Below, piece after piece: positions 45,713-62,272 of a stretch of DNA of 64,000 nucleotides; position 1 is the stretch's first letter; every line of letters starts with the position of its first letter. The position numbers and the translations under genes were made by a program. Under the pieces are notes generated by a model that saw only the letters and a program-made list of their open reading frames with translations, made no database searches and was not told the DNA's origin. Source of the DNA: Elusimicrobiota bacterium (GTDB lineage: Bacteria > Elusimicrobiota > Elusimicrobia > UBA1565); the NCBI GenBank assembly GCA_043819795.1, contig JBDREN010000049.1:2379-66378 (forward strand). Reading direction: 5' to 3'.

Positions 45713-47005
45713 ATGACATCCGAAACCCGTGGGTACGCGATCGTCTTGAGCGCGCTCCTGCTTCTGGCCGGGGGAGCCGGGGCCGGTCATGCGGCGCCGG
45801 ACAAGCTGGGGAAGGTCAACGTCCTGGGCGTCTGGAAAGGCGAGGAGCTGCGCAGCTTCCGGGCCGTGGTGAAGCCGTGGGAAAAGGAGACGGGCGGCAA
45901 GATGCGTTTCGAGGGCAGCCGGGACCTGTCGGCCGTCTTGACGGCTCGGGCGGCGAAGGGCGACGCGCCCGACGTCGCCATCCTGCCCAATCCCGGCCTC
46001 ATGGTCCAGCTGGCGAAGACGAAGAAGCTCGTCCCCCTCGACGGGATGCTGGATATGACGCATTTCGAGGCGGAGTACGCGCGGACCTGGATCGAGCTGG
46101 GATCGGTGGAGGGCAGCCTCTACGGCGTCTTCTACAAGGCCGCCAACAAGAGCACGCTTTGGTACAGCCCCCAGCAGTTCTCCGACCACCAGTGGCCGAT
46201 CCCGCGGACCTGGAAGAGCCTCCTGGCGGTGTCGGAAAGGATCCACGAGGAGGGCAAGACCCCCTGGGCCCTGGGCCTGGAAAGCGGGGATGCGAGCGGC
46301 TGGCCGGCCACCGACTGGATCGGCGAGATCCTGCTCAAGGAGTACGGCCCGGAGAAATACGACGCGTGGGTCGCGCATGAGATCCCCTGGACCGACGAAG
46401 CCGTGCGCTCGGCGTGGGAGAATTTCGGGCGGATCGCGCACGGCGAGGGATACGTGGCGGGAGGCGCTTCCGGGATATTGACCACCGGCTTCCGGGAAGC
46501 GGCGTACCGGGTCTTCCGGAAGCCACCGAAGGCGTATCTCTACTTCCTCGGGAGCTTTACCAAGAAATTCATCACCGAGCGGTTCTCCGGCCTGATGCCG
46601 GCGAAGGACTATTCCTTCATCCCGTTCCCGGCCTTGAACCCCGCATACAGCGGGGCCGTGACCGGCGGGGCGGACGTGGTCGTCGTGTTCAAGGACAACG
46701 CGACCACGCGCTCGTTCATCAACTATCTCGCCTCGGCCGAGGCTCAGGAGATCTGGGTCGAGCGCGGGGGCTTCACGGCCGTCAACCGGAAGGTCAGGCT
46801 CCACAGCTATCCCGACTGGGTCTCCGCGCGGATCGCCTTGCAGCTGTCGAACGCCAAGGTCTTCCGCTTCGACGCCGACGACCAGATGCCGGCCGAGGTC
46901 CAGAAGGCCTTCTGGAAGGGAGCGCTCGACTACGTCCGTGATCAGGCGAGCCTGGACCGCGTCCTCGAAGACATCGAAGCCGTCGCCCGGAAGGCCTACC
47001 GGTAG
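45713..47005 (+). CDS. ABC transporter extracellular solute-binding protein (family 1, sugar-type), orphan
   Basis: Signal peptide YAIVLSALLLLAGGAGAGHA and family-1 SBP pattern (VNVLGVWKGEE..DVAILPNPGLM..YKAANKSTLWY). No permease or ATPase genes follow. Confidence 0.85.
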   Translation: MTSETRGYAIVLSALLLLAGGAGAGHAAPDKLGKVNVLGVWKGEELRSFRAVVKPWEKETGGKMRFEGSRDLSAVLTARAAKGDAPDVAILPNPGLMVQLAKTKKLVPLDGMLDMTHFEAEYARTWIELGSVEGSLYGVFYKAANKSTLWYSPQQFSDHQWPIPRTWKSLLAVSERIHEEGKTPWALGLESGDASGWPATDWIGEILLKEYGPEKYDAWVAHEIPWTDEAVRSAWENFGRIAHGEGYVAGGASGILTTGFREAAYRVFRKPPKAYLYFLGSFTKKFITERFSGLMPAKDYSFIPFPALNPAYSGAVTGGADVVVVFKDNATTRSFINYLASAEAQEIWVERGGFTAVNRKVRLHSYPDWVSARIALQLSNAKVFRFDADDQMPAEVQKAFWKGALDYVRDQASLDRVLEDIEAVARKAYR

Positions 47006-47177
47006 CGTTGAAGCGGCCCGCTCGTAATGGGAAGGCCGTTCCCAAGCGAATCCGCGAGAGAGTGAGCGTCCTGGCCGGGTCGCCGCGTCTGTGTCTCCCC
47101 GGAAGGAACGAATGAATGCGTAGGCCGCGGGGCGAGCTTGCGGCGCTGGAAAGAATCCGCCGGTGTTGAACGCCGGT

Positions 47178-47220
47178 CCGCACGGCTGGGGATAGATCGG
47201 GAAAGTCCCCAGCCGTGCGG
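47178..47220. other. Perfect 15-bp stem hairpin (CCGCACGGCTGGGGA / TCCCCAGCCGTGCGG, 13-nt loop)
   Basis: Arms at 47178-47192 and 47206-47220 are exact reverse complements, followed by TGCTTTG. Possible weak terminator of the SBP transcript or a structured RNA element. Confidence 0.6.
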
Positions 47221-47470
47221 TGCTTTGAGGCCTGCCCGAGTATCCTAGCCCGAATTCCCCGTCTGGATCGCTGGATTCGACGCAAGATGCCGGGACTTTT
47301 CTGTGCGAAATGTCTCGACCGCACGGTTTCCTGACAGGGAGTGGAAGCGGCATTTCCTCGTGGTGACGCTTGGTCATGCCGCAGCGGGTACGCTCTCCAA
47401 ATTCCGCGTTGAACTGGCCTCGGCCTCTTGCATCTCGGTCCCACGCGCCCAACTGGGGAATCCGGGCCAG

Positions 47471-47771
47471 GTGTAGTGAACCATAAATCCCTTGACATTC
47501 GGGCGATCGATTTCGGCCTCCGGCTAGGCGCGGGGAGCGCGCATGCCCGCAGGTATGTAAGCGACGAGCAACGACGCCGGAAGCCAAAAGCGCCCGCCCC
47601 CTCCTCCTTGACGCGGACAGCGGCGAAATTCTATGGAAAGGGGAGGCCCGATCCCGGCCGATTCCCACGTTGCTCCTCGGTTGCATAGCTTAAGCCATGC
47701 GCCCTCATCGCGCCTCGAAATCGACTCGGGCTCGGGCCTCCAAATGACAAGGGATTTATGATTCACTACAC
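47471..47771. mobile_element. MITE-like non-autonomous element (~300 bp) bounded by 29-bp terminal inverted repeats
   Basis: GTGTAGTGAACCATAAATCCCTTGACATT (47471-47499) versus the reverse complement of 47743-47771 (GTGTAGTGAATCATAAATCCCTTGTCATT) matches at 27/29. Imperfect complementarity continues inward (CGATCGATTTCGG / CGAAATCGACTCG). No ORF inside. Confidence 0.45.
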
Positions 47772-47941
47772 TAGCGATGGCCACTTACTGATTCGGATGG
47801 GGCAAATCCTTTCTATAGCGCAGTATTGTTAAATATGAAACATGTGGCGCTGCTAAACGTTGCAAAAGAGAAACTAGAAGCAGTTTGGAGGCATTCTGAA
47901 CTGGTCAAAAAGAACGAAAAAAACGCAACTATTGGTGGCTA

Positions 47942-47970
47942 TTGCAAAATGGAACGATATCTGCTATAAT
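47942..47970 (+). promoter_or_regulatory. Promoter of the PAS/AAA+ regulator gene (sigma-70 TTGCAA-17-TATAAT, overlapping a sigma-54-like GG-N10-GC element)
   Basis: TTGCAA 47942-47947, 17-nt spacer, TATAAT 47965-47970 with TG at 47962-47963. Also TGGAACGATATCTGCT (47950-47965). RBS GGGAG lies 7 nt before ATG 48011. Confidence 0.5.
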
Positions 47971-48010
47971 AGAACCATAGCATACGTTTCCAGCCGCCGG
48001 GAGTTGATAT

Positions 48011-49369
48011 ATGCAGTTTGAAGGCCAAGGTCGTTTTTTCGAGACCATCCTCCGTTGTGTCGCTGACGGCGTGTTCACGGTGGACCGCGACTGGCGTATC
48101 ACCTCCTTCAATAAGGCGGCCGAGCGCATCACGGGCATGAGCGCCCGGCAGGCCATGGGCAAGAGATGCTCCGAAGTCTTTCACGCGGACCTCTGCGGTG
48201 ACGGCTGCGCCATCAGGCGGGCTCTCGAGACCAAACGCGAGGTCATCGAGCAGCCGGCCAATATCCGCGACCAGCGCGGCAGGGCGATCCCGATAAGCAT
48301 CAGCGCGGCCGTGCTTCGGGGGGAGGACGGGACCGTCCTCGGCGGGGTCGAGACGTTCCGCGACCTGTCGGCCATCGAGCAGCTCAGGCGCGAGATCCGG
48401 AGCCAGTACACCTTCGAGGAGATCGTCGGCAAGAGCGAGGCTTTCCAGAAGGTGTTCTCCATCCTGCCGGACGTCGCCGCCAGCGAGAGCACGGTCCTCA
48501 TCGAAGGCCCGAGCGGCTCCGGCAAACAGCTCCTGGCGCGGACCATACACAACCTGAGCCCCCGCCGGGATCGGCCTTACGTCGTGGCGAACTGCGGGAT
48601 GATGCCGTCCGGCCGCTGCGCGTCCGAGCTTTTCGGCCACGTGCGAGGCGCCTTCAAGGACGCCAAGGGGGACCGGCTCGGCCGCATCGCGCAGGCCGAA
48701 GGGGGGACCATCTTCCTGGACGAGATCGGCGACCTGTCGATGGAGAGCCAGGTCAGGCTCCTCAAGGTCCTTCGGGACGGAGAATACGAGCCGCTGGGCG
48801 GCGTCAGTCCCCGGCGCGCCGATGTGCGCGTGGTCGCTGCCACGAGCAAGAGCCTGCCGGATCTGGTCGGGCGGGGGCTTTTCCGCGACGATCTCTACTT
48901 CCGCCTGGCGGTGGTGCGGCTGAGCATACCGCCCCTGTCCGAGCGGCGCGAGGACATCCCCTGCCTGGTCGAGCACTTCGTCCAGCGCTTCAACGCCAAG
49001 CGCGGCAAGAGCATCCAGGGGGTGACGCCCGCGGCCATGGAGCTTCTCATGCGCCATGGTTTTCCCGGGAACGTGCGCGAGCTGGAGAACCTGATCGAAT
49101 GCGGCTTCGCTCTATGCCACGGCGGATGGATGGACGTCGGCCATCTGCCCGAGGATCTGAGGCCGTCGCGGCGGCCGGGCGCCGCCGGGCGCCGCCTCGA
49201 GGGCGCGTCCCTGCTCCGGCACATCGAGGCGGACGCGGTCCGCGCCTCCTTGGGGCGGAACGCGGGCCATCTCGGCCGCACGGCCGAGGAGCTGGGCATC
49301 AGCCGGACCACGTTGTGGCGCAAGATGAACAAGTACGCCATCGAAGCGGACGAGTTCCGGGCCGGTTGA
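48011..49369 (+). CDS. PAS-domain AAA+ enhancer-binding-protein-type transcriptional regulator (NtrC family, no receiver domain; GAFTGA replaced by GAFKDA)
   Basis: N-terminal PAS (ILRCVADGVFTVDRDWRITSFNKAAERITG), Walker A GPSGSGKQ, ELFGHVRGAFKDA, GGTIFLDEIGDL, RVVAAT, FRDDLYFRL, GNVRELEN, C-terminal Fis-type HTH GISRTTLWRKMNKY. Confidence 0.9.
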   Translation: MQFEGQGRFFETILRCVADGVFTVDRDWRITSFNKAAERITGMSARQAMGKRCSEVFHADLCGDGCAIRRALETKREVIEQPANIRDQRGRAIPISISAAVLRGEDGTVLGGVETFRDLSAIEQLRREIRSQYTFEEIVGKSEAFQKVFSILPDVAASESTVLIEGPSGSGKQLLARTIHNLSPRRDRPYVVANCGMMPSGRCASELFGHVRGAFKDAKGDRLGRIAQAEGGTIFLDEIGDLSMESQVRLLKVLRDGEYEPLGGVSPRRADVRVVAATSKSLPDLVGRGLFRDDLYFRLAVVRLSIPPLSERREDIPCLVEHFVQRFNAKRGKSIQGVTPAAMELLMRHGFPGNVRELENLIECGFALCHGGWMDVGHLPEDLRPSRRPGAAGRRLEGASLLRHIEADAVRASLGRNAGHLGRTAEELGISRTTLWRKMNKYAIEADEFRAG

Positions 49370-49388: not shown

Positions 49389-50762
49389 GTGAGCACCCAA
49401 AGGAAATACAGCTACTTCGTCGAGCCCAAGGCGCTCGAGGTCGCGGAGCGTCCGCGAAAATTCCTCATGGCATTCGCGGCCGTGCTGAAGAACGCCAGCT
49501 ACGGGCTGGCGCTCGATACGTACGCGCGCCTGAGCACCAAATGCGGGCGTTGCGTGGCCTCCTGTCAGCTCTATCAGACCACGCGCGAGGAGCGGGACAT
49601 CCCCTGCCATCGCTCCGAGCTCCTGCTGCGGGTGTACCGGCGGTACTTCACGCATTCGGGCCGCCTCAAGGCCAAGATATTCAGCGGTTTCGAGTTGACG
49701 GACGCCTACTTGGACGAGATGGGCGAGGCCTACTACCGCTGCACCGCCTGCCGGCGGTGCAAGGCCACCTGCCCCATGGGCATCGACCACGCCCTGGTCA
49801 CTCATCTGGCCCGGTGGCTGCTCTCGGAGATCGACGTCATCCCCAAGGCGCTGTTGGTGGCGACGCGCGAGCAGCTCGAGGGCGTCGGCAATACCTCGGC
49901 CATCCCGGTCCCCGCGCTCAAGGACACCTGCGAGTTTCTGGAGGAGGAGCTCAAGGAGATCACCGGCGTGGACATCAAGTTCCCCATGGATGTCGAGGGC
50001 GCCGAGTACGTCTTCTTCCCGGCGGTCTCGGACTATCTGCTCGAGGCGGACACCCTCATGGGCAACGCGGCCGTCATGCACGTCACCGGCGGGTCGTGGA
50101 CCATCGGCACGGGCAACTACGACGGCATCAACTACGGCCTGTTCTACAGCGATCGCATGATGGAGCGGATCGTCAACAACGTCGTCAAGGAGGTCCGCCG
50201 CCTCAAGGGGAGGAAGGTCCTCGTCGGCGAATGCGGCCACGCCACTCGCAGCGCCTGGTACGTGCCGGCCTTCGGCGGCCCGGACGCGCCGCCGGTGGTC
50301 AATTGCTTGCAGTACGCCCACCGGATGCTCGAGGCCGGGAAGCTCCCCCTGAAGAAAGAGCTTATCAAGGAGCGGGTCACCTATCACGATCCGTGCAATA
50401 TCGCCAGGAGCGGGCGGATCACCGAGGAGCCTCGGGAGCTCCTTAAGGCTATCTGCGGGGACTTCGTGGAGATGACGCCGAACCGCGCGGAGAACTACTG
50501 CTGCGGCGGAGGCGGCGGCACGGTCTCCATCGACGAGATCCGGGCTTTCCGCACGGGTCTCATGGGAAAGCGCAAGGCGGATCAGATCCGCGCGACCGGC
50601 GCCAAATACGTCGTGTCGCCCTGCGCCAACTGCAAGAAACAGCTCCGCGAGGTCTGCGAGGACAACGGCCTCAACGAGGTCGAGGTCGTGGGCCTGCACG
50701 ACCTGCTGCTGAAGGCGATCGACTTCGGGGTCCCCGAGAAGAAAGGAGAGGACGATGGGTGA
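49389..50762 (+). CDS. HdrD/DsrK/HmcF-like iron-sulfur protein (2x 4Fe-4S + CCG domain), cytoplasmic
   Basis: CGRCVASCQLY and CTACRRCKATCPMGIDH ferredoxin motifs. CCG-domain signatures YHDPCNIARS and NYCCGGGGG. Confidence 0.85.
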   Translation: MSTQRKYSYFVEPKALEVAERPRKFLMAFAAVLKNASYGLALDTYARLSTKCGRCVASCQLYQTTREERDIPCHRSELLLRVYRRYFTHSGRLKAKIFSGFELTDAYLDEMGEAYYRCTACRRCKATCPMGIDHALVTHLARWLLSEIDVIPKALLVATREQLEGVGNTSAIPVPALKDTCEFLEEELKEITGVDIKFPMDVEGAEYVFFPAVSDYLLEADTLMGNAAVMHVTGGSWTIGTGNYDGINYGLFYSDRMMERIVNNVVKEVRRLKGRKVLVGECGHATRSAWYVPAFGGPDAPPVVNCLQYAHRMLEAGKLPLKKELIKERVTYHDPCNIARSGRITEEPRELLKAICGDFVEMTPNRAENYCCGGGGGTVSIDEIRAFRTGLMGKRKADQIRATGAKYVVSPCANCKKQLREVCEDNGLNEVEVVGLHDLLLKAIDFGVPEKKGEDDG

Positions 50763-51465
50763 GCTAGAGATCTGGACCGAGTGGGCGCGCGGGCCGCTGT
50801 TCAGGGCCGCGCTGGCGTTCATGATCCTGGGCCTTCTGCGTCACGCGGCGTTGACCATATGGGAGCTGGCGGGGATCATGTACCGCGCCGGCGACAAGGC
50901 CTTCCCGTGGAGGCGGGCATTCTCCGCCACGCTAAAATGGCTTTTCCCGGTGGGGCAGATCAAGAACCGTGTCCTCTACAGCCTGACCACGCTCGGCTTC
51001 CATGCCGCCGTCATCATCGTTCCCGTTTTTCTCGCGGGCCACGTCGCGCTCTGGGAGCGGGGCACGGGCCTGTGCTGGCCGACCATCCCCAACGGCGTGG
51101 CGGACGTGCTGACGATCATGGCCGTGCTCGCGGCGGCCTTGCTCGTGGCGGAGCGCGCGGCCGCGCGGGACTCCCGGGCGCTGAGCCGCTTCCAGGACTA
51201 CGCCTTGCCCCTGCTCGTGGCCGCGCCCTTCGCGACCGGCTTCCTGGTCATGCATCCGGCTTTAAACCCGTTCGGCCATGAAGCGACGATTCTGGTCCAC
51301 GTGTTGAGCGCGGATATTCTGTTCATCCTCATCCCGCTGACCAAGCTGAGCCACATGATCCTGCTCCCGGGCACGCAGATCATCTCCGAGCTGTCCTGGC
51401 ATTTCCCGCCGGACGCCGGCAGGAAAGTGGGCGTCGATCTCGGGAAGGAGAAGCAACCCATATGA
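50755..51465 (+). CDS. NarI/DsrM/HmcE-like membrane cytochrome b subunit
   Basis: 8-nt overlap with the upstream gene. About 5 TM helices with conserved His (LLRHAAL, GFHAAVIIVP, GHVALWE, HVLSADILF, KLSHMILLP). Confidence 0.7.
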   Translation: MGELEIWTEWARGPLFRAALAFMILGLLRHAALTIWELAGIMYRAGDKAFPWRRAFSATLKWLFPVGQIKNRVLYSLTTLGFHAAVIIVPVFLAGHVALWERGTGLCWPTIPNGVADVLTIMAVLAAALLVAERAAARDSRALSRFQDYALPLLVAAPFATGFLVMHPALNPFGHEATILVHVLSADILFILIPLTKLSHMILLPGTQIISELSWHFPPDAGRKVGVDLGKEKQPI

Positions 51466-52595
51466 AGAAGCCCGTCGCCATCCTTACGGACACGACGCTC
51501 TGCACCGGCTGCGAGGAATGCGTCGCGGCGTGCAAGAAGGAGAACGGCCTGGGCGAGGATCGCCGGTGGCGCTGGCAAAGCTCCGTGAGCGAGCTTTCCG
51601 CGTCGCGCTTCACCGCAATCATCCGTCGGCCCGGCAACCGCTACGTCCGCCAGCAGTGCCGGCACTGCGTGGACCCGGCGTGCGTGAGCGCCTGCATCGT
51701 GGGCGCGCTGCGGAAGACGGAAGAAGGCGCGGTGGTCTACGACCAGGATAAGTGCATCGGCTGCCGTTACTGCATGCTGGCCTGCCCCTACGGGATCCCG
51801 CGCTACGATTGGGAGAAGCCGATCCCGTACATCAGGAAGTGCACGCTCTGCTATGACAGGCTTGAGGAGGGAAAGGCCCCCGCCTGCGTGGAGGCCTGCC
51901 CCGAGAAGGCGACGATATTCGGCTCCCGCTCCGATATGCTGGCCGAGGCCCATCGGCGCCTGAAACGGCATCCCGGGAAGTACGTCCAGAAGGTCTACGG
52001 GGAACGCGAGGTGGGGGGGACGTCGGTCCTCTACATCTCGGACATACCCCTTGATTTCCTCGGCTGGCAGACCGATCCCGGCGAGCGGCCGCTGCCGGAC
52101 CTCACGTGGGCCGCCCAAAGGAAGATCCCGGCCGCGGCTCTGGGGGTGTTCGGGCTCATGGGCGGCACCTACTGGGTCATCGGCCGGAGGATGCAGGCCG
52201 CGGCGCGGGCGGGCCTGAAAGACGCGCCCCGGGAAGGGGACGCCCCGTCCGTGGGGCACGGGCATCCGGAGCAGGGAGGGGCCCTCTCCGGCCTGAAGAC
52301 GGCCCTGTGGATGCCTCTCGGCGTGGTGGCGGCCGTGACCATCGTGCGTTTCGCGCGGAATCTGGACGCGGCCGCGAGCCTCGGGGACGGAGCCCTCTGG
52401 ACCCTGTGGCTCGCCCTCGGCGTGGCGGGAGGCACCGGTCTCGGGGCGGGGATCCATTGGCTCGCCGCCCGCCGCAAGAAGGCGCCGGAGGAGGACGCGG
52501 AGCCCGAGGAAGGAACTCCCACCCCGCCCGTCCAGGCGTCGAAGACTTCCGTTCCCAAGCAGATCGCGGGCGACGGCGGCCCGAAGGAGCGATAG
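51462..52595 (+). CDS. Four-cluster 4Fe-4S ferredoxin subunit (HybA/HmcB/DsrO/NrfC-like) with C-terminal TM helices and no signal peptide
   Basis: ATGA overlap. CTGCEECVAAC, CRHCVDPACVSAC, CIGCRYCMLACP, CTLCYDR..CVEACP. The first Cys is residue 14 (MKKPVAILTDTTLC). Three hydrophobic segments lie after residue ~215. Confidence 0.85.
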   Translation: MKKPVAILTDTTLCTGCEECVAACKKENGLGEDRRWRWQSSVSELSASRFTAIIRRPGNRYVRQQCRHCVDPACVSACIVGALRKTEEGAVVYDQDKCIGCRYCMLACPYGIPRYDWEKPIPYIRKCTLCYDRLEEGKAPACVEACPEKATIFGSRSDMLAEAHRRLKRHPGKYVQKVYGEREVGGTSVLYISDIPLDFLGWQTDPGERPLPDLTWAAQRKIPAAALGVFGLMGGTYWVIGRRMQAAARAGLKDAPREGDAPSVGHGHPEQGGALSGLKTALWMPLGVVAAVTIVRFARNLDAAASLGDGALWTLWLALGVAGGTGLGAGIHWLAARRKKAPEEDAEPEEGTPTPPVQASKTSVPKQIAGDGGPKER

Positions 52596-52599
52596 GGCG

Positions 52600-54561
52600 A
52601 TGATGCCTCTGAGAAGAATCAAGAGCCTGCTCTGGTTCGTCCTGGGCGCGGGCATGGTGACCATCGCCGCGCGGCTGCTCACCGGGCTCGGCGCGGTCAC
52701 CAACCTGTCCCACAACGTTTCCTGGGGCCTGTGGAACGCGGTCAAGATCAGCATCGTGCCCCTCTCGGCCGGAGGGTTCGTTTTGGCTGCGATCGTCTAC
52801 GTCTTCCATATGGAGAGGTTCCGTCCCGTGCTCCGTTTGGCCATCCTTACGGGGTTTTTGGGCTACTCGACCTTCGCCACGATGCTCATGTTCGATATCG
52901 GGGTGCCCTACCGGATATGGCATCCCATGGTCTACTGGCAGCACCATTCCGTGCTCTTCGAAGTGGCGTGGTGCGTGATGCTGTATCTGACCGTGCTGGC
53001 CCTCGAGTTCTTGCCCAACGTGCTGGAGCATCCTCTGCTGAAGCACCCCCTGCTCCAGAAGGGATACAAGCTCCTGAAGAGCGCGACCGTACCCCTGGTG
53101 ACCGCGGGGATCGTGCTGTCCACGCTGCACCAGTCGTCGTTGGGCTCGCTGTTTTTGATCGTCCCCCACCGTCTCGATCCCTTATGGTACAGCCCGCTGA
53201 TACACGCGCTCTTCCTGGTCTCCGCCGTCGGGATGGGGCTTCTGGTGATCGCCGTGGAGGCGGTCCTGATCGAGCGTCTCTACGGCGTCAAGGCGCCGCT
53301 GGACGTCCTCGCCCCTTTGGCCCGCGCGGGCGCGGTGGTGATGGCCCTCTTCTTGGCCGTCAGGCTGGCCGACCAGGTCGCTCGCGGGGTGCTCCCGGGT
53401 GCTCTGAGCACATCTCCGATGGCGGCGGCATTCGTCCTTGAGACTCTGATCGCCTCGATCGTGCCGCTGCTGCTTCTGCGCAGGAGCGTCCGCGAGAGCC
53501 GCGGGGGCCTGTTCGCCTGCTCTCTTTCCGCGGTGCTGGGAGTCGTCTGGTACAGGTCGAACGTCGCCTTGCTGGCCATCGACTGGGGCGAGGCGGCCTA
53601 TTTCCCGGCGTGGACCGAGTTCGCCCTGTGCTTCGGCATACTGGCCGGGTCGGGCTTGGTGTTCTTCTTGCTGCTGGAGAACCTGGACATTTATTACGGG
53701 CCGGCCGCATCCGGCCGTGACCGCGAGCCGCAGGTGCCGGGGTTGGCGTTCGAGGCTTGGCTGGCGGACGCGAGGATCACCGCGGCCAGGCGCTATTCCC
53801 TGTTCATCGTGGCGGGCGCGGCGGCGGCCGTCTTGTTTCTCCCCGAGGGCACGGTGTTCGGAGCCAGGCCCGCGGACACGCCGGCGGCGCAGGCCCGGCG
53901 GGTCCGGGGCTTGTCGGTCCGGACCGGCGGCGGACGCGTCAGCACGCTGCGCCTCGGCGAGAGGCCGGTCCCCGCTAAGGGCCGAGTGAAGCGCCTGCCG
54001 CTTTACCTGATTGACGGCGACCGCGATGAGGACGCGGTCCTCTTCGATCACGCGGGCCATGTCAAGCGGGCGGGCGGCGAGAAGCGCTGCGGGGTGTGCC
54101 ATCACCTGAACATGCCGCTCGACGAGAACACCTCCTGCCATGAATGTCATCGCGACATGTACGAGCCCGCCTCCGTGTTCAGCCACGCATCGCATGTGCG
54201 CGAACTCGGGGGGAACGCGGGCTGCGTCAAGTGCCATGAGGATCCTCTCGTGGTGAAGGACCGCCGGACGGCCGTCGCTTGCGGGGAATGCCACTCCGAT
54301 TCGGCGGCAAAGGGCTCCTTCGTCGAGGCGCCGGGGCCGAGGTGGGGGGCCGCGCCGGGCTACGCGGACGCGATGCACGGCCTCTGCGAGAGTTGTCATA
54401 AGAAGAAGGCGAAAGAAGAGCCGGGCCGTTATCCCGCGGCGCTGGGGCGTTGCGCCGCCTGCCACGATACGGACCGCCCCATGGATATCCGTCGGATGGC
54501 GCCGCGAAGTGATAGAATGCGGGCCATGCGCGCCGAGGAACGCGGGCTCTCGGGCGGCTGA
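52600..54561 (+). CDS. NrfD/DsrP/HmcC-like quinone-interacting membrane subunit fused to a C-terminal hexahaem cytochrome c domain
   Basis: NrfD hallmark GLGAVTNLSHNVSWGLWNAVKISIV plus multiple TM helices, then an extra TM (RRYSLFIVAGAAAAVLFL). Six CxxCH motifs lie between 54088 and 54465 (CGVCH, CHECH, CVKCH, CGECH, CESCH, CAACH). Confidence 0.85.
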   Translation: MMPLRRIKSLLWFVLGAGMVTIAARLLTGLGAVTNLSHNVSWGLWNAVKISIVPLSAGGFVLAAIVYVFHMERFRPVLRLAILTGFLGYSTFATMLMFDIGVPYRIWHPMVYWQHHSVLFEVAWCVMLYLTVLALEFLPNVLEHPLLKHPLLQKGYKLLKSATVPLVTAGIVLSTLHQSSLGSLFLIVPHRLDPLWYSPLIHALFLVSAVGMGLLVIAVEAVLIERLYGVKAPLDVLAPLARAGAVVMALFLAVRLADQVARGVLPGALSTSPMAAAFVLETLIASIVPLLLLRRSVRESRGGLFACSLSAVLGVVWYRSNVALLAIDWGEAAYFPAWTEFALCFGILAGSGLVFFLLLENLDIYYGPAASGRDREPQVPGLAFEAWLADARITAARRYSLFIVAGAAAAVLFLPEGTVFGARPADTPAAQARRVRGLSVRTGGGRVSTLRLGERPVPAKGRVKRLPLYLIDGDRDEDAVLFDHAGHVKRAGGEKRCGVCHHLNMPLDENTSCHECHRDMYEPASVFSHASHVRELGGNAGCVKCHEDPLVVKDRRTAVACGECHSDSAAKGSFVEAPGPRWGAAPGYADAMHGLCESCHKKKAKEEPGRYPAALGRCAACHDTDRPMDIRRMAPRSDRMRAMRAEERGLSGG

Positions 54562-54565
54562 AACC

Positions 54566-55681
54566 ATGGCCCCCAAAGAGATAGAAAGCTGGCTTCGATC
54601 GAGCCTCTTTAACGAGGTCCCGGTGAGCATCTGCGTGATCGACCGGGGTTTCCGGATCATCGAGGCGAACCGGAGGTTCAGGGAGGAATACGGCCCCTGG
54701 AAGGACCGGGCGTGCCACGAGGTCTGCAAGGGTCTGGAGGAGCCCTGCGAGCGTTGCGGCGCGGTCAAGACCTTCTCGGACGGGCGCGTGCGCAACCGGG
54801 AGGAGACGGGAGCGGGCGGGAAGCACTACCTGGTGCACATGGTCCCCATCACCACCGACGGCGGGGATATCTCCTACGTCATCGAGACGTTCACGGATAT
54901 CACGCAGGTGAAGCAGCTGGAGGGCGAGAAGCGCGAAGCCGAGCGTCTGGCCGCCGTCGGCGAGACCGTGGCCGGCATCGCCCACGGCATGAAGAACGTG
55001 CTTACCGGGCTCGAAGGCGGCGTCTATGCCGTCAATACGGGCATCCAGCATGGCGACGACGAGAGGATCACCGAAGGCTGGGCCATGCTCGAGGAGAATA
55101 TCGCGCGCATCTCGGAGTTTGTCAAGGAGTTCCTGGCTTTCTCCAAGGGGCGCATCGCGCGGGTGGCCTTCGTGGACCCCAACGCCCCGGCGCGGGCGGT
55201 CTTTGAGCTCTTCCGGGAGAAGGCCGCGCAGGCGGGCATCGAGCTGAAGGCGGACCTGCAAGAGGGGATTCCTCCCGCGCCCCTGGACGAGCAGGGGATC
55301 CACGCCTGCCTGGCCAACCTCGTATCGAACGCCCTGGACGCCTGCTCCATGGGCGAGCAGCGGCGCGCGTGCGTGGTGACGATTCGCTCCCGGGAGCGCA
55401 GCGGGACGCTAGTGTACGAGGTTGCGGACAACGGCCGCGGGATGGACTACGAGATCAGTAGGAAAGTGTTTTCGAGGTTCTTCAGCACGAAGGGCTCGGA
55501 CCGGGGCACGGGTCTGGGGCTGCTCACCACTAAGAAGACCATCCACCAGCACGGCGGCCGGGTCTCGTTCAGCTCCGAGGAGAGCAGGGGCTCGGTGTTC
55601 CGCATCGAGCTTCCCCGGGAAAGACTGCCCAAGCCGGGCGGGAAGCCCGCCCAACGACAGGCCGCGGAAGGAGACGCCTGA
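54566..55681 (+). CDS. Cytoplasmic PAS sensor histidine kinase
   Basis: ATG 54566 (MAPKEIESWL..). PAS with a four-Cys cluster, H-box LAAVGETVAGIAHGMKNVL, N/G boxes LVSNALDA, DNGRGM, GTGLGL. Confidence 0.85.
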   Translation: MAPKEIESWLRSSLFNEVPVSICVIDRGFRIIEANRRFREEYGPWKDRACHEVCKGLEEPCERCGAVKTFSDGRVRNREETGAGGKHYLVHMVPITTDGGDISYVIETFTDITQVKQLEGEKREAERLAAVGETVAGIAHGMKNVLTGLEGGVYAVNTGIQHGDDERITEGWAMLEENIARISEFVKEFLAFSKGRIARVAFVDPNAPARAVFELFREKAAQAGIELKADLQEGIPPAPLDEQGIHACLANLVSNALDACSMGEQRRACVVTIRSRERSGTLVYEVADNGRGMDYEISRKVFSRFFSTKGSDRGTGLGLLTTKKTIHQHGGRVSFSSEESRGSVFRIELPRERLPKPGGKPAQRQAAEGDA

Positions 55682-56229
55682 TGGACAAAGAGAACGCCAA
55701 AGGACGCGCCGAGGATAAGACCGTACTCGTGGTCGATGACGAGCCGAACGTGCGCCGCCACCTGGCCCACATCCTAGAGGACGCCGGCTTCAAGGTCCTT
55801 ACGGCCTCCGATGGGGATGAGGCCCTGAAGACCATCCGGGAGCGGCGCCCGGACATCATCTCGCTCGACCTGGTCATGCCGCGCAAGAGCGGGCGCCGGC
55901 TGCTCTACGAGCTGAAGAAGGATAAGGAGCTCTCCCGCATCCCGGTGGTCATCGTCACCGCGCACGCCCAGGACGAGCTGGGCCAGAGCGACATGGAAGC
56001 CATCAGGGAGAGCATGATCATATCGGGCCCGGGCTTCTATCTGGAGAAGCCGGTTAGGCCCATGGACTACGTGCGCTGCATCCAGGAAGCCCTGGGCATC
56101 GAAGTGGCGGATCAAGCCGCGGACAAAGTCAGCCTCAAGGACGAGCTGAAGCGGCAGATGCAGGGGGCGGAGCCGCACGCGCTGCGCCGCGCCCTCGAGG
56201 CGTTGAGAAAGAAAGGCCCGCCGCGCTAG
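55681..56229 (+). CDS. Response regulator, receiver domain with short C-terminal extension (no recognised output domain)
   Basis: TGATG overlap with the kinase gene. VLVVDDEPNVR..DIISLDLVMPRKSG..VVIVTAH..LEKP. Confidence 0.85.
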   Translation: MDKENAKGRAEDKTVLVVDDEPNVRRHLAHILEDAGFKVLTASDGDEALKTIRERRPDIISLDLVMPRKSGRRLLYELKKDKELSRIPVVIVTAHAQDELGQSDMEAIRESMIISGPGFYLEKPVRPMDYVRCIQEALGIEVADQAADKVSLKDELKRQMQGAEPHALRRALEALRKKGPPR

Positions 56230-56248: not shown

Positions 56249-56602
56249 ATGGCGAAGAAGATCCTGATCGTCGAAGACGAGCCGCACGTCGTGAAGTATC
56301 TCGAGATGTTCCTCCACGACGCGGGCTTCCAGACGGTATCCGCGAGCGACGGTCAGACGGGTCTGGAGCTGGCCAAGCGCGAGAAGCCGGACCTGGTGAT
56401 CCTGGACCTTATGATGCCGAAGAAGACGGGGACGGACTTCTACCGGAAGCTCTCCAGGGACAAGGAGCTCGGCGATACCCCCGTCATCGTGGTCAGCGGT
56501 CTGGCCGGCCGAGATCTCGTCGTCAGGAAGCCTGCGGCGGTGTTCGACAAGCCCCCGGACCGCGAGGGGCTCATCGCCGCCATCAAGAAAGCCCTCCCGT
56601 AG
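56249..56602 (+). CDS. Single-domain response regulator (receiver only)
   Basis: KILIVEDEPHV..DLVILDLMMPKKTG..VIVVSG..FDKP. Confidence 0.85.
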   Translation: MAKKILIVEDEPHVVKYLEMFLHDAGFQTVSASDGQTGLELAKREKPDLVILDLMMPKKTGTDFYRKLSRDKELGDTPVIVVSGLAGRDLVVRKPAAVFDKPPDREGLIAAIKKALP

Positions 56603-56708: not shown

Positions 56709-57752
56709 ATGCTGTACAAGGTGATCACGAAGGCCGAGTTTCGGAAGTTCGTCGACGGCCTGATCCAGGACAACCAGACTATAGGCCCCAAGCGGGTCGC
56801 CACGGACGCGAAAGGCAAGCCCGTCTACCAGTTTGTCGAGGTCCGCTCCTTCGACGAGTTGGACCTCGACTACACGATCACCTACTCCTCGGTGAAGAAT
56901 TTCTTCCACCCCTTCCGCGAGGAGCTGTCTCGTTTCAAGCTGAAAGATGACGATTGGGAGCAGGAGATCGAATACCGCGTCAATCCGAGGGTCATCATCG
57001 GCGTGCGGCCGTGCGACATCAACGCCTTGGCGATCCTGGACAAGGTGTTCTTGAGCGGGAGATTCCCCTCGCCGTACTACATCGCCCGGCGCCGGAACAC
57101 CTTCCTGATCGGAATGGACCATCTGCCCCTGGATGACTGCTTCTGCGAGTCCCTGAACCGGCACGCCCCGCGCGAGGGGTTCAACCTCTACTGCTCGGAC
57201 ATCGGGGACAGATACTATCTCTCGATCCTTTCCTCAAAGGCCTTCAGCTTCCTCAAGAACGTGAGGACGAGCGAGCCCTCCAAGGCGGACAACAAAAGAT
57301 ACATCGAGAGAAGAAAGCTCATCAAACGGAGCTTCAAGACCAAGGTGGAGGTCTCGGGCCTGCCGAGCTTCCTGGACATCGAGTTCAAGTCCCCGATATG
57401 GGATAAATGGGGGGACAAGTGCCTGAACTGCGGGACATGCGCCATGGTCTGCCCCACGTGCTACTGCTACGGGGTGGAGCAGTCCGTGGACGTGGACCTG
57501 AAGACCGCCCGCAAGGAGCGCATGCTGTACTCCTGCAACGTCGTGGATTTCGCGGAGGTGGCCGGAGGGCACAACTTCAGGCCGAAGAAGGCGGACAGGC
57601 TGAAGTACCGGTTCTATCACCATTACAGGGGTTTCGAGGAGAACGCCGACGAGCAGATCTGCGTTGGCTGCAACCGGTGCGGCAGGGCCTGCCTGGCGGG
57701 GATCAACCCGAAGGACGTGATCAACGACTTGAGGCTGGAGACCGGAGAATGA
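56709..57752 (+). CDS. [NiFe] hydrogenase group 3b-type beta subunit (AsrA/HydB-like Fe-S protein)
   Basis: [37 protein letters not shown]. First gene of the beta-gamma-delta-alpha order known from sulfhydrogenases. Confidence 0.8.
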
Positions 57753-58663
57753 AGGCGGGATTCAAAATACCCAGGCAGGACATCAATCTCGAGCCGTTCA
57801 TGACGGCGCCTCCCCAGTTCAACCGCAAGACCATCGTCATGCGCACGGACAAGGTCTACAAGTGCGAGCTCATCAACATCGTCGAGCTGACCTCCATGGA
57901 GAAGCTCTTCCATCTCAAGATCATCGACCCCCGCGAGAGGAAGCTGTTCTCCTTCCGGCCGGGACAGTTCGTGATGGTCCAGGTGCCCGGCTCCGGGGAG
58001 GTCCCGGTCTCCATATCGAGCTCGAGCAACAACCGGGAGTTCCTGGAGCTGTGCGTCCGCAGGGCGGGGCGCACCACCGGCATGCTGCACCGGGCCCGGA
58101 TCGGCGCGAAGGTGGGGATCCGCGGGCCCTTCGGCTCGTCTTTCCCCATGGAGGAGATGGCTGGCCACAACGTCCTGCTGATCGCCGGAGGGCTCGGCCT
58201 GGCCCCCCTGCGCGCCCCCATCTGCTGGGTCAACGAGCGCCGGGACCAGTACGGCGACGTCCACATCCTCTACGGCGCCAAAGAGCCTTCCCAGATGCTC
58301 TTCACGTACGAATTCAAGGAATGGGAACGGGTGAACCACATCAATCTGCTGACCATCGTCGAGAAGGCGGACAAGGCCTGGAAGGGCGGGACGGGCCTCA
58401 TCACCGAGCTCTTCAGGGATTTCTCCATCAAGCCGCTCGACACCTACGCGATCGTGTGCGGGCCGCCCGTCATGTTCAAGTTCGTGTGCGGGCATCTGGA
58501 CTCCATCGGGGTTCCCATGAACCGCATGTTCGTCTCCCTGGAGCGGCGGATGCACTGCGGCATGGGCAAGTGCTGCCGGTGCATGGTGGGCTCGACGTTC
58601 ACCTGCGTGGAAGGCCCCGTGTTCGACTACTGGAGCGTCATGAATTTGAAGGAGGCGATTTGA
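57749..58663 (+). CDS. [NiFe] hydrogenase group 3b-type gamma subunit (FAD/NAD(P)-binding, 2Fe-2S; AsrB/HydG-like)
   Basis: ATGA overlap (57749-57752). [36 protein letters not shown]-terminal [10 protein letters not shown] cluster. Confidence 0.85.
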
Positions 58664-59415
58664 GATACCTCGGCATCGAGCTCAAGAAGCCCAGGATCGC
58701 CGTCTTCGACTTCACCTGCTGCGAGGGCTGCGAGCTGCAGCTGGCGAACAAGGAGGAGACCCTGGTCGATTTCCTCTCCCTTGTCGAGGTCGTGAACTTC
58801 CGGGAGGTGTCCTCGGACAAGAGCGAGGACTACGAGATCGCCTTCGTGGAGGGGGCGGTCTCGAGGGAGGATGAGGTCGCTCGCCTGAAGAAGATCAGGG
58901 TGAACGCGAAGGTCCTCGTGGCTTTCGGCGCCTGCGCCTGCTTCGGCGGCGTGAACCAGATCAAGAACAAGTTCCCGCTCAAGTCGGTCGTCCGAGAGGT
59001 GTACGGCAGGCACCGCGTGGCCACGTCCAAGGTGCGGAAGATCAGCGAAGTGGTCAAAGTGGATCTCGAGATCCCGGGCTGTCCGGTCTCCAAGAAAGAG
59101 GTGGAAAGGATCGTCGTCGCTCTGGTCACGGGCGCGGGCATCAGCCTGCCGAAGTACCCCGTCTGCCTCGAGTGCAAGGCGAAGTGCAACGTCTGCGTCC
59201 TGGACCTCGGGCAGATCTGCCTGGGTCCGATCACGCGCGCGGGCTGCGATTCGCCCTGCCCATCCGGGGGGACCGCGTGCCTGGGCTGCAGGGGGCCGGC
59301 GCCCGAGGCCAATTACGAGTCGTTCCTGCGGATATTGAAAGACCGGGGCTTCAAGGCCCCGGAGATCAAGGAGAGGCTCGAGTTCTACGGCGCCTTCAAC
59401 GGGGTCATGAGATGA
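58660..59415 (+). CDS. [NiFe] hydrogenase small (delta) subunit, group 3 type
   Basis: TTG 58660 overlaps the gamma stop, with GAAGGAGG upstream. [28 protein letters not shown], and distal cluster cysteines [12 protein letters not shown]. Confidence 0.85.
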
Positions 59416-60686
59416 AGCGCGCCAGGGAGATCACCGTACGCCATGTGACCCGGGTCGAGGGCCACGGCGACATCCATATCAAGGTGAAAGACGGCCGGCT
59501 CGTGGATGCGCGGTGGGCCGTGGTGGAGACCCCGCGTTTCTTCGAGGCCATGCTCAAGGGCATGTCCCATGATCTGGCGCCCATACTGACGGCCAGGATC
59601 TGCGGCATCTGCTCCATAGGCCACTGCCTGGCGAGCCTGAGGGCGGTGGAGAGGGCCATGGACGTCAAGGTCCCGGAGACCGCGCGGCTGTTGCGCCTGC
59701 TCGCCAAGCACGGCGAGACCCTTCAGAGCCACGCGCTCCACGTGTTCTTCCTGTCCGCGCCCGATCTCTTCAAGGTGGGGAGCGTCATCCCCCTGATCAA
59801 GTCCCATCCCGAGGTCGTCGGCATCGCGGCCAGGCTCAAGAAGCTGGGAAACGACGCTTGCGACCTGATCGCGGGGCGGACCACGCACCCGGTGAGCCTG
59901 GTGGTGGGCGGGCTCAGCAGGCTGCCCACGGACAAGCAGATCGAGGAGCTGAGGGGCGCGTTCCTTGCGAGGCTGCCGGACATGCGCGCGGCCGTCGACC
60001 TCTTCAAGACGCTTCCCATGCCGGACTTCCAGCGGGAGACGGAGTTCGTGTCATTGAAGGGCCAGGGGGACTATCCCTGGATCGGGGGGGATCTCGTGTC
60101 GTCCGACGGCGTCCGCAGGCCGGAGGACGGCTACCTGGCCATGACGAACGAATACAAAGTGGAGTTCAGCACCTCGAAGTTCGCCAAGCTGAGTAGGGAG
60201 TCCTTCGCGGTCGGCGCCCTGGCGAGGTTCAACAACAATCACAAGCATCTGCGGCCGGAGGCGAAGGGAGCCGCCAAGGCGCTGGGCTTGAGTCCCCTGA
60301 GCCACAACCCTTTCATGAACAACGTGGCCCAGCTCGTGGAATGCTATCACGTGATGCTGGAGTCCATCGAGTTGCTGGACGGGCTTCTGGGCCGCCGGGG
60401 AAAGACCGCGTCCCGTCCTTATAAAGTGAAGGCCGGCCGGGGCGTCGCCGCCGTGGAGGTGCCCCGGGGCATCCTCTACCACGAATACGAGCTCGACAAG
60501 AAGGGCAAGGTCGTCAGGGCGAACTGCGTCATCCCCACCACGCAGAACCACGCCAACATCCACCACGATCTCCGGGCGCTCGCCGCGCGGCTGGTGCGGG
60601 AAGGCAAAAGCGACGGGGAGATCACTTTGCTGAGCGAGATGCTGGTCCGGTCCTACGACCCCTGCATCTCCTGCTCCGTCCACTAG
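59412..60686 (+). CDS. [NiFe] hydrogenase large (alpha) subunit, group 3b type, ending at the C-terminal His
   Basis: ATGA overlap. VTRVEGHG, L1 motif [11 protein letters not shown]-terminal DPCISCSVH followed directly by TAG (60684-60686). Confidence 0.9.
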
Positions 60687-61756: not shown

Positions 61757-62272
61757 ATGGTAGACCCTGCAAAGGCTTTTACCGAACCTGTGATTGCGAT
61801 CGGGACGCTGGCTGAGAAGAGCGGCCTTTCCGTATCCGCGATCCGGAAGTACGAGGCGGAGGGCCTGCTCATTCCCTTTCGGACGCCTTCCGGCCATCGC
61901 CTGTTTTCTCACGAGGACATGGACCGGGTGAAGATCATCCGCCACATGATCCAGGAGCTGGGCCTGAACATCGAGGGCATCAGGAGGCTGCAGGCGCTGC
62001 TTCCGTGCTGGGAGCTGGTCCGGTGCTCGGAGGATAAGCGAAGCGAGTGCCCGGCCTACAAAGACAACTCCAAGCCGTGCTGGATGGTCCGGGGAGGGGA
62101 CTGCAGCGCGCGCGGGAACGAATGCCGCAGCTGCGCGGTGTACCGGTTCGGCTCGCAGTGCACCGAGGACATCAAGCGCGTGGTGCACAACCGGGCGGCT
62201 CCGGAGGAGCTGAGCGAGGAAGTGCGGAAGGCTTTGAACAGGCTGGAACAACCTGAGAAGGGGGATAGATGA
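61757..62272 (+). CDS. MerR family transcriptional regulator with C-terminal cysteine-rich (2x PCW) domain
   Basis: MerR HTH IGTLAEKSGLSVSAIRKYEAEGLL..RTPSGHRLFS, then LLPCWELVRCSEDKRSECPAYKDNSKPCWMVRGGDCSARGNECRSCAVYRFGSQC. Confidence 0.85.
   Translation: MVDPAKAFTEPVIAIGTLAEKSGLSVSAIRKYEAEGLLIPFRTPSGHRLFSHEDMDRVKIIRHMIQELGLNIEGIRRLQALLPCWELVRCSEDKRSECPAYKDNSKPCWMVRGGDCSARGNECRSCAVYRFGSQCTEDIKRVVHNRAAPEELSEEVRKALNRLEQPEKGDR

Follow-up and report, generated by a model that had tools for sequence, protein, structure and literature searches.

A conserved NrfD–hexahaem cytochrome c fusion, candidate hub of a four-subunit membrane complex, in an Elusimicrobiota genome and other bacterial phyla

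Introduction

In many anaerobic respiratory complexes (Psr, Nrf, Hyb, Qrc, Dsr, and ACIII, the alternative complex III), an NrfD-type subunit provides the coupling to quinone, and in the characterised complexes of this type the cytochrome partner is, to our knowledge, always a separate chain. Here we describe a gene that encodes both as one polypeptide: a fusion of an NrfD domain and a hexahaem cytochrome c, found in a 64,000-nucleotide (nt) stretch of contig JBDREN010000049.1 from an Elusimicrobiota bacterium (assembly GCA_043819795.1). This whole stretch is called the window below, and positions refer to it unless another locus is named. The fusion is conserved in at least six phyla (Elusimicrobiota, Latescibacterota, Gemmatimonadota, Planctomycetota, Acidobacteriota, and Myxococcota) and is the candidate hub of a four-subunit membrane complex encoded by a conserved gene cassette.

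The closest known structure that contains all five modules of this complex is that of DsrMKJOP. In the Archaeoglobus fulgidus complex, studied by cryo-electron microscopy, menadiol occupies a site of DsrP close to the periplasmic face, within less than 8 Å of a DsrO cluster; the DsrJ haems contact DsrM, and DsrM feeds DsrK (bioRxiv 10.64898/2026.08.25.746951). The 10-helix members of the NrfD family (ActC, HybB, HmcC, DsrP, and QrcD) have two helices, A and B, in addition to a core of eight; in ActC, both termini are on the cytoplasmic (N) side (PMC8076601).

The Fusion Gene and Its Domains

The open reading frame (ORF) encodes 653 amino acids (aa) from an ATG start and contains no internal stop codons. 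Its G+C content at third codon positions stays within 0.77-0.93 whichever 60 codons are taken, also across the linker near 53.7 kb, where both other forward frames are interrupted by stops. Because this composition is uniform and the other forward frames are closed, the gene is read as a single uninterrupted frame with no sign of a frameshift. The Pfam domains NrfD (PF03916; residues 33-319, 70.2 bits, cut-off 25.8) and Cytochrom_CIII (PF02085; residues 477-565, 44.3 bits, cut-off 22.9) were both found, and the class III cytochrome c and c7 domains together span residues 477-630. Judged by the sequences of its domains, the fusion belongs both to the NrfD/PsrC family and to the class III cytochromes. 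An earlier note on this DNA had described a fusion in one ORF, with an NrfD/HybB-like region of about 380 N-terminal residues, an extra hydrophobic helix from nt 53791, and six CxxCH motifs. This description was borne out: a HybB/HmcC-type NrfD region was recognised over about 370 residues (Pfam, NCBIfam, Foldseek, and alignment with HybB), the helix (RRYSLFIVAGAAAAVLFLPEG) is the eleventh transmembrane segment, the motif starts (nt 54088-54451) were reproduced, and the single frame is kept in many independent assemblies.

Hydropathy analysis yielded eleven transmembrane segments, ten of them ahead of the anchor helix. Lysine and arginine are distributed accordingly, with 18 in the predicted cytoplasmic loops vs. 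2 in the predicted periplasmic ones (means over 36 homologues, 16.9 and 2.4, respectively). The best NCBIfam matches of the NrfD domain were HmcC (224.3 bits, cut-off 550) and HybB (NF008133; 221.7 bits, cut-off 450), while the DsrP model gave 28.1 bits (cut-off 350). The AlphaFold model of the whole fusion is confident in the membrane part, and its top Foldseek matches were ActC structures (6btm_C, 8k9e_C, 6lod_C, 6f0k_C; E-values 7e-8 to 6e-7, target template modelling scores 0.59-0.64), followed by ActF. In E. coli HybB, replacement of R89, Y99, E148, or H184 lowers H2 oxidation (PMC8076601); in the alignment with this protein these residues correspond to R79, Y89, E136, and H177 of the fusion, all four invariant in 36 homologues. 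The majority of the proposed HybB quinone-site and channel residues, including those of the N-side channel, are likewise retained, which suggests a functional NrfD domain with a predicted quinone site. No CxxCH motif occurs ahead of residue 497, an observation that covers haem c only, as the absence of haem b is not readable from sequence.

The eleventh helix (RRYSLFIVAGAAAAVLFLPEG, residues 398-418, nt 53791-53853) has a hydropathy peak of 1.92 at residues 401-419, is modelled at residues 383-412, and contains the motif RRYSL...LP, conserved among homologues. It is preceded by a linker with variable alignment columns and a predicted local distance difference test score (pLDDT) below 50 for residues 367-388. 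Behind it lies a second linker, which forms strands in both AlphaFold models and in which D472, G473, and R475 are nearly invariant. The attachment of c-type haems takes place on the periplasmic side only. Since the 10-helix core ends in the cytoplasm, an eleventh helix is needed to reach the periplasm, and helix 11 is the device that exports the C-terminal haem domain. The predicted topology indeed places the CxxCH domain in the periplasm, as the reading of the earlier note had required.

In the hexahaem domain, CxxCH motifs start at nt 54088, 54136, 54223, 54280, 54385, and 54451. The 120 homologues aligned, which are 37-56% identical to this region, have these six motifs and six further histidines (H484, H487, H502, H529, H532, and H593 in full-length numbering) without exception, so that the distal histidines suffice for six bis-His haems; no conserved extra cysteine was found in the domain in the homologue alignments. 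Haems 1-4 belong to a cytochrome c3 fold, with two further haems behind it: the domain passes as a c3-fold member and aligns to the full length of 2bq4, including the VxFxHxxH stretch and four CxxCH motifs. It also matches parts of HmcA (26.1 bits with the HmcA NCBIfam model, cut-off 400), and ActA weakly. AlphaFold modelled the domain poorly with 36 sequences and with a pLDDT of 87 with 120. Sequence and model together indicate that the C-terminal domain is a c3-fold multihaem cytochrome, with predicted periplasmic location and predicted haem attachment. Among the window genes scanned, neither ccm nor ccs genes were found.

Distribution of the Fusion

A search of 5.8 billion proteins with the fusion returned 3,746 relatives, of which the best 120 clusters were analysed. 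These are 627-698 aa long, cover 94-100% of the query at 45-69% identity, contain both Pfam domains in nearly all cases, and originate from NCBI, JGI, ENA, and Logan assemblies. The named carriers among them belong to Elusimicrobiota, Latescibacterota, Gemmatimonadota, and Planctomycetota; a scan of genome contigs with the single protein found five loci and added Phycisphaerales, Polyangiaceae, and Acidobacteriota. Two carriers are closed chromosomes of metagenome-assembled genomes (MAGs; 4.3 and 5.5 Mb), and one NCBI protein of an Elusimicrobiota MAG, MFH1723724.1, is identical to the fusion, for which an exact look-up on contigs gave no hit. The database search that the earlier note had proposed thus found a common architecture filed under generic names. 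In the literature searched, we found neither the cassette nor a fusion of NrfD with a cytochrome c described; the architecture is undescribed rather than rare.

An unfused cytochrome ancestor was looked for among the relatives and not found. Two proteins that resembled stand-alone cytochromes were rejected: P0133 is a contig-end fragment, and P0124, from a contig of low coverage, is a fusion that was miscalled or is frameshifted, with the NrfD part upstream on the same strand. Two representatives from the C-terminal search (see below) are extended: P0197 has the receiver domain of a response regulator appended behind the haem domain, and P0138 has more than six CxxCH motifs. These may be real further fusions or may result from missed stop codons.

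The Conserved Cassette

The cassette consists, in this order, of a sigma-54-dependent activator, a DsrK/HmcF/TmcB-like Fe-S protein with a CCG motif, a membrane cytochrome b, a four-cluster Fe-S protein, the fusion, a histidine kinase, and two response regulators (Table 1). The four complex genes, from the CCG protein to the fusion, form a tight operon in which neighbours overlap by at most 8 nt or are separated by at most 4 nt (the Fe-S gene ends 4 nt before the fusion), and the ORFs of the window include no extra small membrane gene between them. Related loci are labelled L001-L019; L003 is counted with L001, and L013 and L014 repeat L012 on other contigs. The full order recurs in all sufficiently long loci (L001/L003, L002, L004, L005, L006, L007, and the more distant L016), and was seen in Latescibacterota, Gemmatimonadota, Phycisphaerales, Polyangiaceae, Acidobacteriota, and one unclassified MAG. 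The activator is at the same place in L001, L002, L007, L012, and L016. The kinase probably starts at the ATG at 54566, just past the stop codon of the fusion, given that its homologues align from residue 19-24 of the annotated frame.

The CCG protein, the presumed catalytic subunit, scores best with the DsrK model (273.8 bits, cut-off 400), ahead of TmcB (203 bits) and HmcF (199.9 bits, cut-off 750). The cytochrome b of the window shares two histidine pairs, FH..13..GH and VH..17..SH, with those of L001 and L002, which suggests that this subunit carries two haems. Between phyla (window vs. L001, L002, L004, L005, and L007), identity is 79-82% for the CCG protein and 46-50% for the fusion encoded nearby, a contrast suggesting that the CCG protein is very strongly constrained or that the cassette has recently spread by horizontal transfer.

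In many cassettes a small cysteine-containing protein with a weak match to the Pfam family Nitro_FeMo-Co is encoded ahead of the CCG gene. It could possibly be a partner or substrate of the CCG protein; the role of an obligatory substrate is ruled out by its absence from the window and L004.

Variants Lacking the NrfD Core

The C-terminal 271 residues of the fusion were compared with 1.84 billion representative proteins, which gave 336 clusters at E <= 0.001. The best 150 of these, sorted by eye with fragments starting at helix 9 or 10 excluded from the variant types, are mostly full fusions or fragments thereof. These 150 include about eleven clusters of complete proteins, roughly 290 aa long, in which three helices precede the same haem domain, and about seven with five or six helices. 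The three-helix forms begin with the (R/K)xxKxxLW motif of the NrfD domain, and the family profile assigns their helix 1 to helix A and helices 2-3 to helices B and 11, with weak partial scores of 5-11 bits. By sequence, these forms look like the fusion minus its 8-helix core.

In five sequence-distinct variant loci (L009-L012 and L019), the cytochrome gene is directly behind the cytochrome b gene and the Fe-S gene is missing. The genes for the CCG protein, cytochrome b, and anchored hexahaem cytochrome are kept, as is the rest of the cassette on contigs of sufficient length. Nine places (the window, L001/L003, L002, L004-L007, L015, and L016) have both the Fe-S gene and the NrfD core, and the five distinct variant loci have neither, which argues that the Fe-S subunit and NrfD work as a unit. 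That the haem domain is retained in the variants without NrfD argues that the haems also belong functionally with the cytochrome b/CCG pair.

Proposed Electron Path and Its Direction

From the domains, motifs, predicted topology, conservation, and gene linkage described above, we infer how the subunits dock, which path the electrons take, and in which direction. The conserved fusion is probably the hub of a four-subunit complex composed of Hmc-, Tmc-, and DsrMKJOP-type modules, which would run from menaquinol to a cytoplasmic substrate. The ten-helix NrfD domain of HybB/HmcC type would bind quinone close to its periplasmic face and contain a path for protons to the cytoplasm, and helix 11 would take the chain out to a membrane-tethered, c3-type wire of six haems, all with bis-His ligation. 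The four-cluster Fe-S protein would dock on the periplasmic face of NrfD and join the quinone site to the haems, from which electrons would pass to the dihaem cytochrome b and further to the cytoplasmic CCG protein. The whole chain would comprise the NrfD quinone site, four [4Fe-4S] clusters, six tethered haems, two haems b, and the CCG cluster. As in A. fulgidus DsrMKJOP, menaquinol would enter and a di- or polysulfide-type substrate would be reduced at the CCG cluster in the cytoplasm, the path being probably reversible. Expression would be controlled by the sigma-54 activator and the two-component system of the cassette itself. The earlier note had assumed that the fused haems are wired directly to the quinone-site subunit; this is probably not the case, as the four-cluster Fe-S subunit encoded just upstream most likely lies between them, as it does in DsrMKJOP.

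The Dsr-like direction was chosen because the cassette encodes no periplasmic donor, and we regard it as the weakest point of the proposal, against which several observations weigh. First, the HybB/HmcC/QrcD group has been proposed to reduce quinones while drawing cytoplasmic protons (Duarte et al., 2018; PMC6303296), and with a proton path of this type the menaquinol-to-cytoplasm reaction would conserve no energy. Second, dsrAB and dsrC were not seen among the window genes scanned, and all NCBIfam equivalog cut-offs were missed. Third, since the variants without NrfD keep the haem domain, the haems must also act independently of the NrfD quinone site, and these variants imply a periplasmic partner for the haems. 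Finally, no signal peptide was found in any of the seven Fe-S homologues examined, and no Tat-signal partner able to carry the Fe-S subunit was found among the cassette genes (Tat, twin-arginine translocation), while the periplasmic location of the Fe-S domain is predicted only from tail-anchor homology and charge bias.

A serious rival, which we consider possible but clearly less likely than the menaquinol-to-cytoplasm path, is a use resembling that of Hmc, Qrc, and Tmc. Periplasmic donors, such as soluble cytochromes, a hydrogenase, or formate dehydrogenase, would deliver electrons to the haems, and these would pass through the Fe-S subunit and NrfD to menaquinone, in an electrogenic reduction with protons from the cytoplasm, and/or through cytochrome b and the CCG protein to the cytoplasm. 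The high scores of the NrfD domain with HmcC and HybB, its poor score with DsrP, and the conservation of the HybB N-side channel residues agree with this reading, as does the proposed role of HybB, HmcC, and QrcD as quinone reducers (PMC6303296); the variants lacking NrfD and the Fe-S subunit resemble TmcABC, which needs a periplasmic partner. However, no periplasmic donor enzyme or soluble cytochrome is encoded in the conserved cassette at any locus, and DsrMKJOP, the closest known structure with all five modules, runs from quinol to the cytoplasm.

The Fe-S Subunit and Its Export

The Fe-S subunit matches HmcB with 246.2 bits (cut-off 420) and DsrO with 119.8 bits (cut-off 200). The profiles of HmcB, HybA, DsrO, and NrfC match it only from their position 36-44 onward (HmcB from 36), since the protein begins directly at the first cluster motif (MKKPVAILTDTTLCTGCEEC). 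When aligned with E. coli HybA, the window protein matches the C-terminal tail but has no counterpart of the 33-aa Tat signal, and the signal peptide is equally missing from the homologues of L001, L002, L004, L005, L007, and L016. Upstream of the ORF there is either no room for an extension or nothing that resembles a signal; the ATG in L001 and L004 is preceded, two codons away, by an in-frame stop. The C-terminal helix and the RR cluster that follows it align with the tail anchor of HybA.

The window protein is 377 aa long, compared with 273-282 aa in the homologues; the additional ~100 C-terminal residues (52290-52595) comprise two transmembrane helices and an acidic tail behind an RRKK cluster. 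With these, the Fe-S domain of the window protein would be on one side of the membrane and all positive clusters on the other.

An Fe-S subunit that has no signal of its own is normally exported as the hitchhiker of a partner with a Tat signal. A published case is a signal-less Fe-S subunit found with a HybB-like protein beside a Tat-dependent [FeFe] hydrogenase (PMC10924467). For the cassette described here, this leaves three options: a partner encoded outside the cassette, an unusual mode of export, or a cytoplasmic subunit, in which case the fused haems would touch the quinone site directly. That the subunit is periplasmic with neither a Tat signal nor a signal-bearing partner, or else cytoplasmic with the fused haems as the direct partner of the NrfD quinone site, is in our view rather doubtful; if true, either outcome would be a new assembly or wiring of an NrfD-type quinone module, in a complex found across at least six phyla.

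The cytoplasmic alternative taken separately, with a tail-anchored Fe-S subunit that serves the CCG protein and fused haems that take electrons directly from the NrfD quinone site, appears unlikely. It would account for the seven homologues without a signal peptide and for the lack of a Tat-signal partner in the cassette, and a fusion of cytochrome and NrfD would be sensible if the cytochrome had replaced the Fe-S partner; such a wiring would be new for the NrfD family. However, the alignment of the C-terminal tail and RR cluster with the HybA anchor places the N-terminal domain outside, and the extra helices and RRKK cluster of the window protein are consistent with this orientation. Moreover, the joint loss of the Fe-S gene and the NrfD core in the five variant loci points to a unit of Fe-S subunit and NrfD, not of Fe-S subunit and CCG protein, and the Fe-S subunit is on the P side beside the quinone site in Psr and ACIII (PMC8076601) and in DsrMKJOP (bioRxiv 10.64898/2026.08.25.746951).

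Weaker Alternatives

It is improbable that helix 11 is an internal signal peptide cut by signal peptidase, which would leave a fusion at the gene level only. The helix is signal-like, with an RR n-region, a hydrophobic core of about 20 residues, and a helix-breaking Pro-Glu-Gly, but no conserved AxA-type site follows it in 36 homologues, which instead share LP...G..P..TPV, and the nearest AQA in the window protein is about 17 residues beyond the helix. Anchored, uncleaved cytochrome subunits are also usual in related complexes, DsrJ and ActA being examples. The membrane-anchored QrcA is another (PMC6303296). As to the idea of the earlier note that the helix is the retained signal peptide of a former cytochrome gene, the extra helix itself stands, and its origin from a signal peptide is plausible, though no unfused ancestor was found.

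In databases, the fusion is named 'Ni/Fe-hydrogenase cytochrome b subunit' or molybdoenzyme anchor, labels that the gene context, as far as the sequences go, does not support. The former would make it the HybB anchor of a periplasmic hydrogenase-2-type enzyme. Despite the HybB score, the conserved functional residues, and a [NiFe] hydrogenase encoded just downstream in the window, this is very improbable: the score is far under the cut-off of 450, the downstream enzyme resembles a cytoplasmic sulfhydrogenase and is not beside the cassette in other genomes, and no cassette contains HybO/HybC-type genes. Finally, an artefact in which two genes were merged through a missed stop or a frameshift near 53.7 kb has a negligible chance, as frame and codon composition are continuous across the junction, the same fused length and collinear linker are seen in two closed chromosomes and in over 120 clusters that stem from independent projects, and apparent stand-alone cytochromes are contig-end fragments or a miscalled gene; the assembly error that the earlier note had warned of did not materialise, and as far as sequence data can tell the fusion is not an assembly artefact.

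Cassette Features and Surroundings in the Window

Table 1. Genes and domains of the cassette in the window, and selected genes in related loci. Positions are those of the window unless a locus is named.
Feature	Position	Strand	Evidence and remarks
PAS sigma-54-dependent activator	48011-49369	+	first cassette gene; Pfam Sigma54_activat 189.8 bits, PAS, HTH_8
DsrK/HmcF/TmcB-like cytoplasmic Fe-S protein (CCG protein)	49389-50762	+	one complete CCG motif; Pfam CCG 59.8 bits, Fer4_8
TmcC/HmcE/DsrM-like membrane cytochrome b	50755-51465	+	NCBIfam TmcC 125.8 bits, HmcE 117.1 bits (cut-off 275), both below cut-off
HmcB/HybA-like tail-anchored four-cluster Fe-S subunit	51462-52595	+	16 Cys; Pfam Fer4_11 87.1 bits
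NrfD-hexahaem cytochrome c fusion	52600-54561	+	fourth gene of the operon
Fusion, NrfD domain	52600-53697	+	residues 1-366; ten transmembrane helices, both termini predicted cytoplasmic (hydropathy, positive-inside)
Fusion, cytoplasmic linker	53698-53784	+	residues 367-395; variable columns, low model confidence
Fusion, eleventh transmembrane helix	53785-53856	+	residues 396-419; hydropathy, model, conserved motif
Fusion, predicted periplasmic beta-strand linker	53857-54036	+	residues 420-479; ends with conserved IDG(N/D)RD
Fusion, hexahaem domain	54037-54465	+	residues 480-622; six CxxCH and six distal His
Cytoplasmic PAS histidine kinase	54509-55681	+	Pfam HATPase_c 81.3 bits, PAS_4
Response regulator 1	55681-56229	+	62-67% identity to same-position genes (Pfam Response_reg) in L001, L002, L004, L007
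Response regulator 2, stand-alone receiver	56249-56602	+	last cassette gene; same-position homologues in L001, L002, L004, L007
Fe-S subunit, window and related loci	window 51462-52595; L001 7160-8008; L002 7177-7998; L004 from 7169; L016 5169-5996		no signal peptide
Nitro_FeMo-Co-like protein	L001 4659-5033; L002 4654-5004; L007 about 4607-4978; L012 2972-3715		weak Pfam match
Variant cytochrome genes	L009 235-1113; L010 1445-2347; L011 569-1441; L012 6001-6867; L019 239-1564		three or five to six helices

Upstream of the cassette, about 1 kb (47005-48011) of lower G+C content (0.61) between a gene for a solute-binding protein and the activator gene contains no convincing ORF; a scan of the whole window with Rfam, this region included, gave no match. 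Within it, TGGAACGATATCTGCT at 47950-47965 is a sigma-54-like GG-N10-GC element 46 nt upstream of the activator gene; the promoter pattern has 14 matches in the window vs. 16.9 expected, which is not significant.

Directly past the cassette, four genes (56709-60686) encode a hydrogenase that resembles cytoplasmic NAD(P)-linked sulfhydrogenases. ShyB/HydB-, HydD-, and ShyA/HydA-like subunits were identified, and the second gene has no family match; from the names of the matching models we take the enzyme to be group 3b-like. It was not found beside the cassette in the other genomes examined. Further downstream (61757-64000), a MerR regulator is followed by a NarI-like membrane protein (62269-63156) and a DsrK/HmcF-type Fe-S protein that starts at about 63153 and runs off the window; the latter two form a second pair of cytochrome b and CCG protein. 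On the minus strand, a 1314-aa ORF (32269-36213) has a TamB-like C-terminal region.

Comparison with Known Systems

The host phyla are mostly uncultured, and their respiratory chains are known almost solely through annotation. In these genomes, the fusion would mark a compact complex of four subunits, with regulators of its own, in which modules of Hmc, Tmc, and Dsr are combined. The tethered haem domain, together with the natural variants that lack NrfD and the Fe-S subunit, provides material on how haems, Fe-S clusters, and quinone site are connected and on the direction in which HybB/HmcC-type modules run; the signal-less Fe-S subunit poses a separate question of export.

CbcL of Geobacter likewise unites, in one polypeptide, a membrane domain that reacts with quinones and a multihaem cytochrome c domain in the periplasm. 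Unlike the fusion, CbcL has a dihaem b-type membrane part of the HydC/FdnI kind, nine haems, and no Fe-S or CCG partners. Another precedent for a membrane subunit joined to a cytochrome c domain is the ActD-ActE fusion in ACIII (PMC3534657). ACIII and QrcABCD share with the cassette a 10-helix NrfD subunit, a periplasmic Fe-S subunit (predicted as such in the cassette), and a membrane-anchored penta- or hexahaem cytochrome, and ActC is the best structural match of the fusion. However, the cassette lacks the molybdopterin-like QrcB/ActB1 subunit, which bears the Tat signal in Qrc and ACIII, and in these complexes the cytochrome is a separate chain and the cytochrome b/CCG module is absent.

The TmcABCD complex resembles the cassette in its CCG protein (TmcB), cytochrome b (TmcC), and c3-fold cytochrome, and the variant cassettes L010 and L012 have exactly the layout of TmcB, TmcC, and cytochrome. 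In contrast to Tmc, the full cassette adds the Fe-S/NrfD quinone module, anchors the cytochrome, and has no TmcD. With HmcABCDEF of Desulfovibrio, the cassette shares HmcB-, HmcC-, HmcE-, and HmcF-like subunits, HmcB and HmcC being the top NCBIfam matches of the Fe-S subunit and the NrfD domain, respectively. It differs from Hmc in having six haems fused to the HmcC-like part instead of a separate sixteen-haem HmcA, in the absence of HmcD and of a signal peptide on the HmcB-like subunit, in the reversed gene order, and in scores that reach at most 59% of the equivalog cut-offs.

Finally, DsrMKJOP consists of the same five modules, i.e., the CCG protein (DsrK, whose model is the best match of the cassette CCG protein), the dihaem cytochrome (DsrM), the multihaem cytochrome c (DsrJ), the Fe-S protein (DsrO), and NrfD (DsrP). 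However, DsrJ has three haems, one of them with His/Cys ligation, whereas the fusion has six predicted bis-His haems in and behind a c3 fold; the cassette cytochrome is fused to the NrfD subunit, which is of HybB/HmcC type, the gene order is K-M-O-P::cytochrome, dsrAB and dsrC are not seen in the scanned window genes, the hosts are not known sulfate reducers, and the DsrK, DsrO, and DsrP equivalog cut-offs are missed. Taken by its sequences, which miss the equivalog cut-offs of every named subunit, the predicted complex is one that would work like DsrMKJOP, Hmc, and Tmc, yet is a member of none of them.

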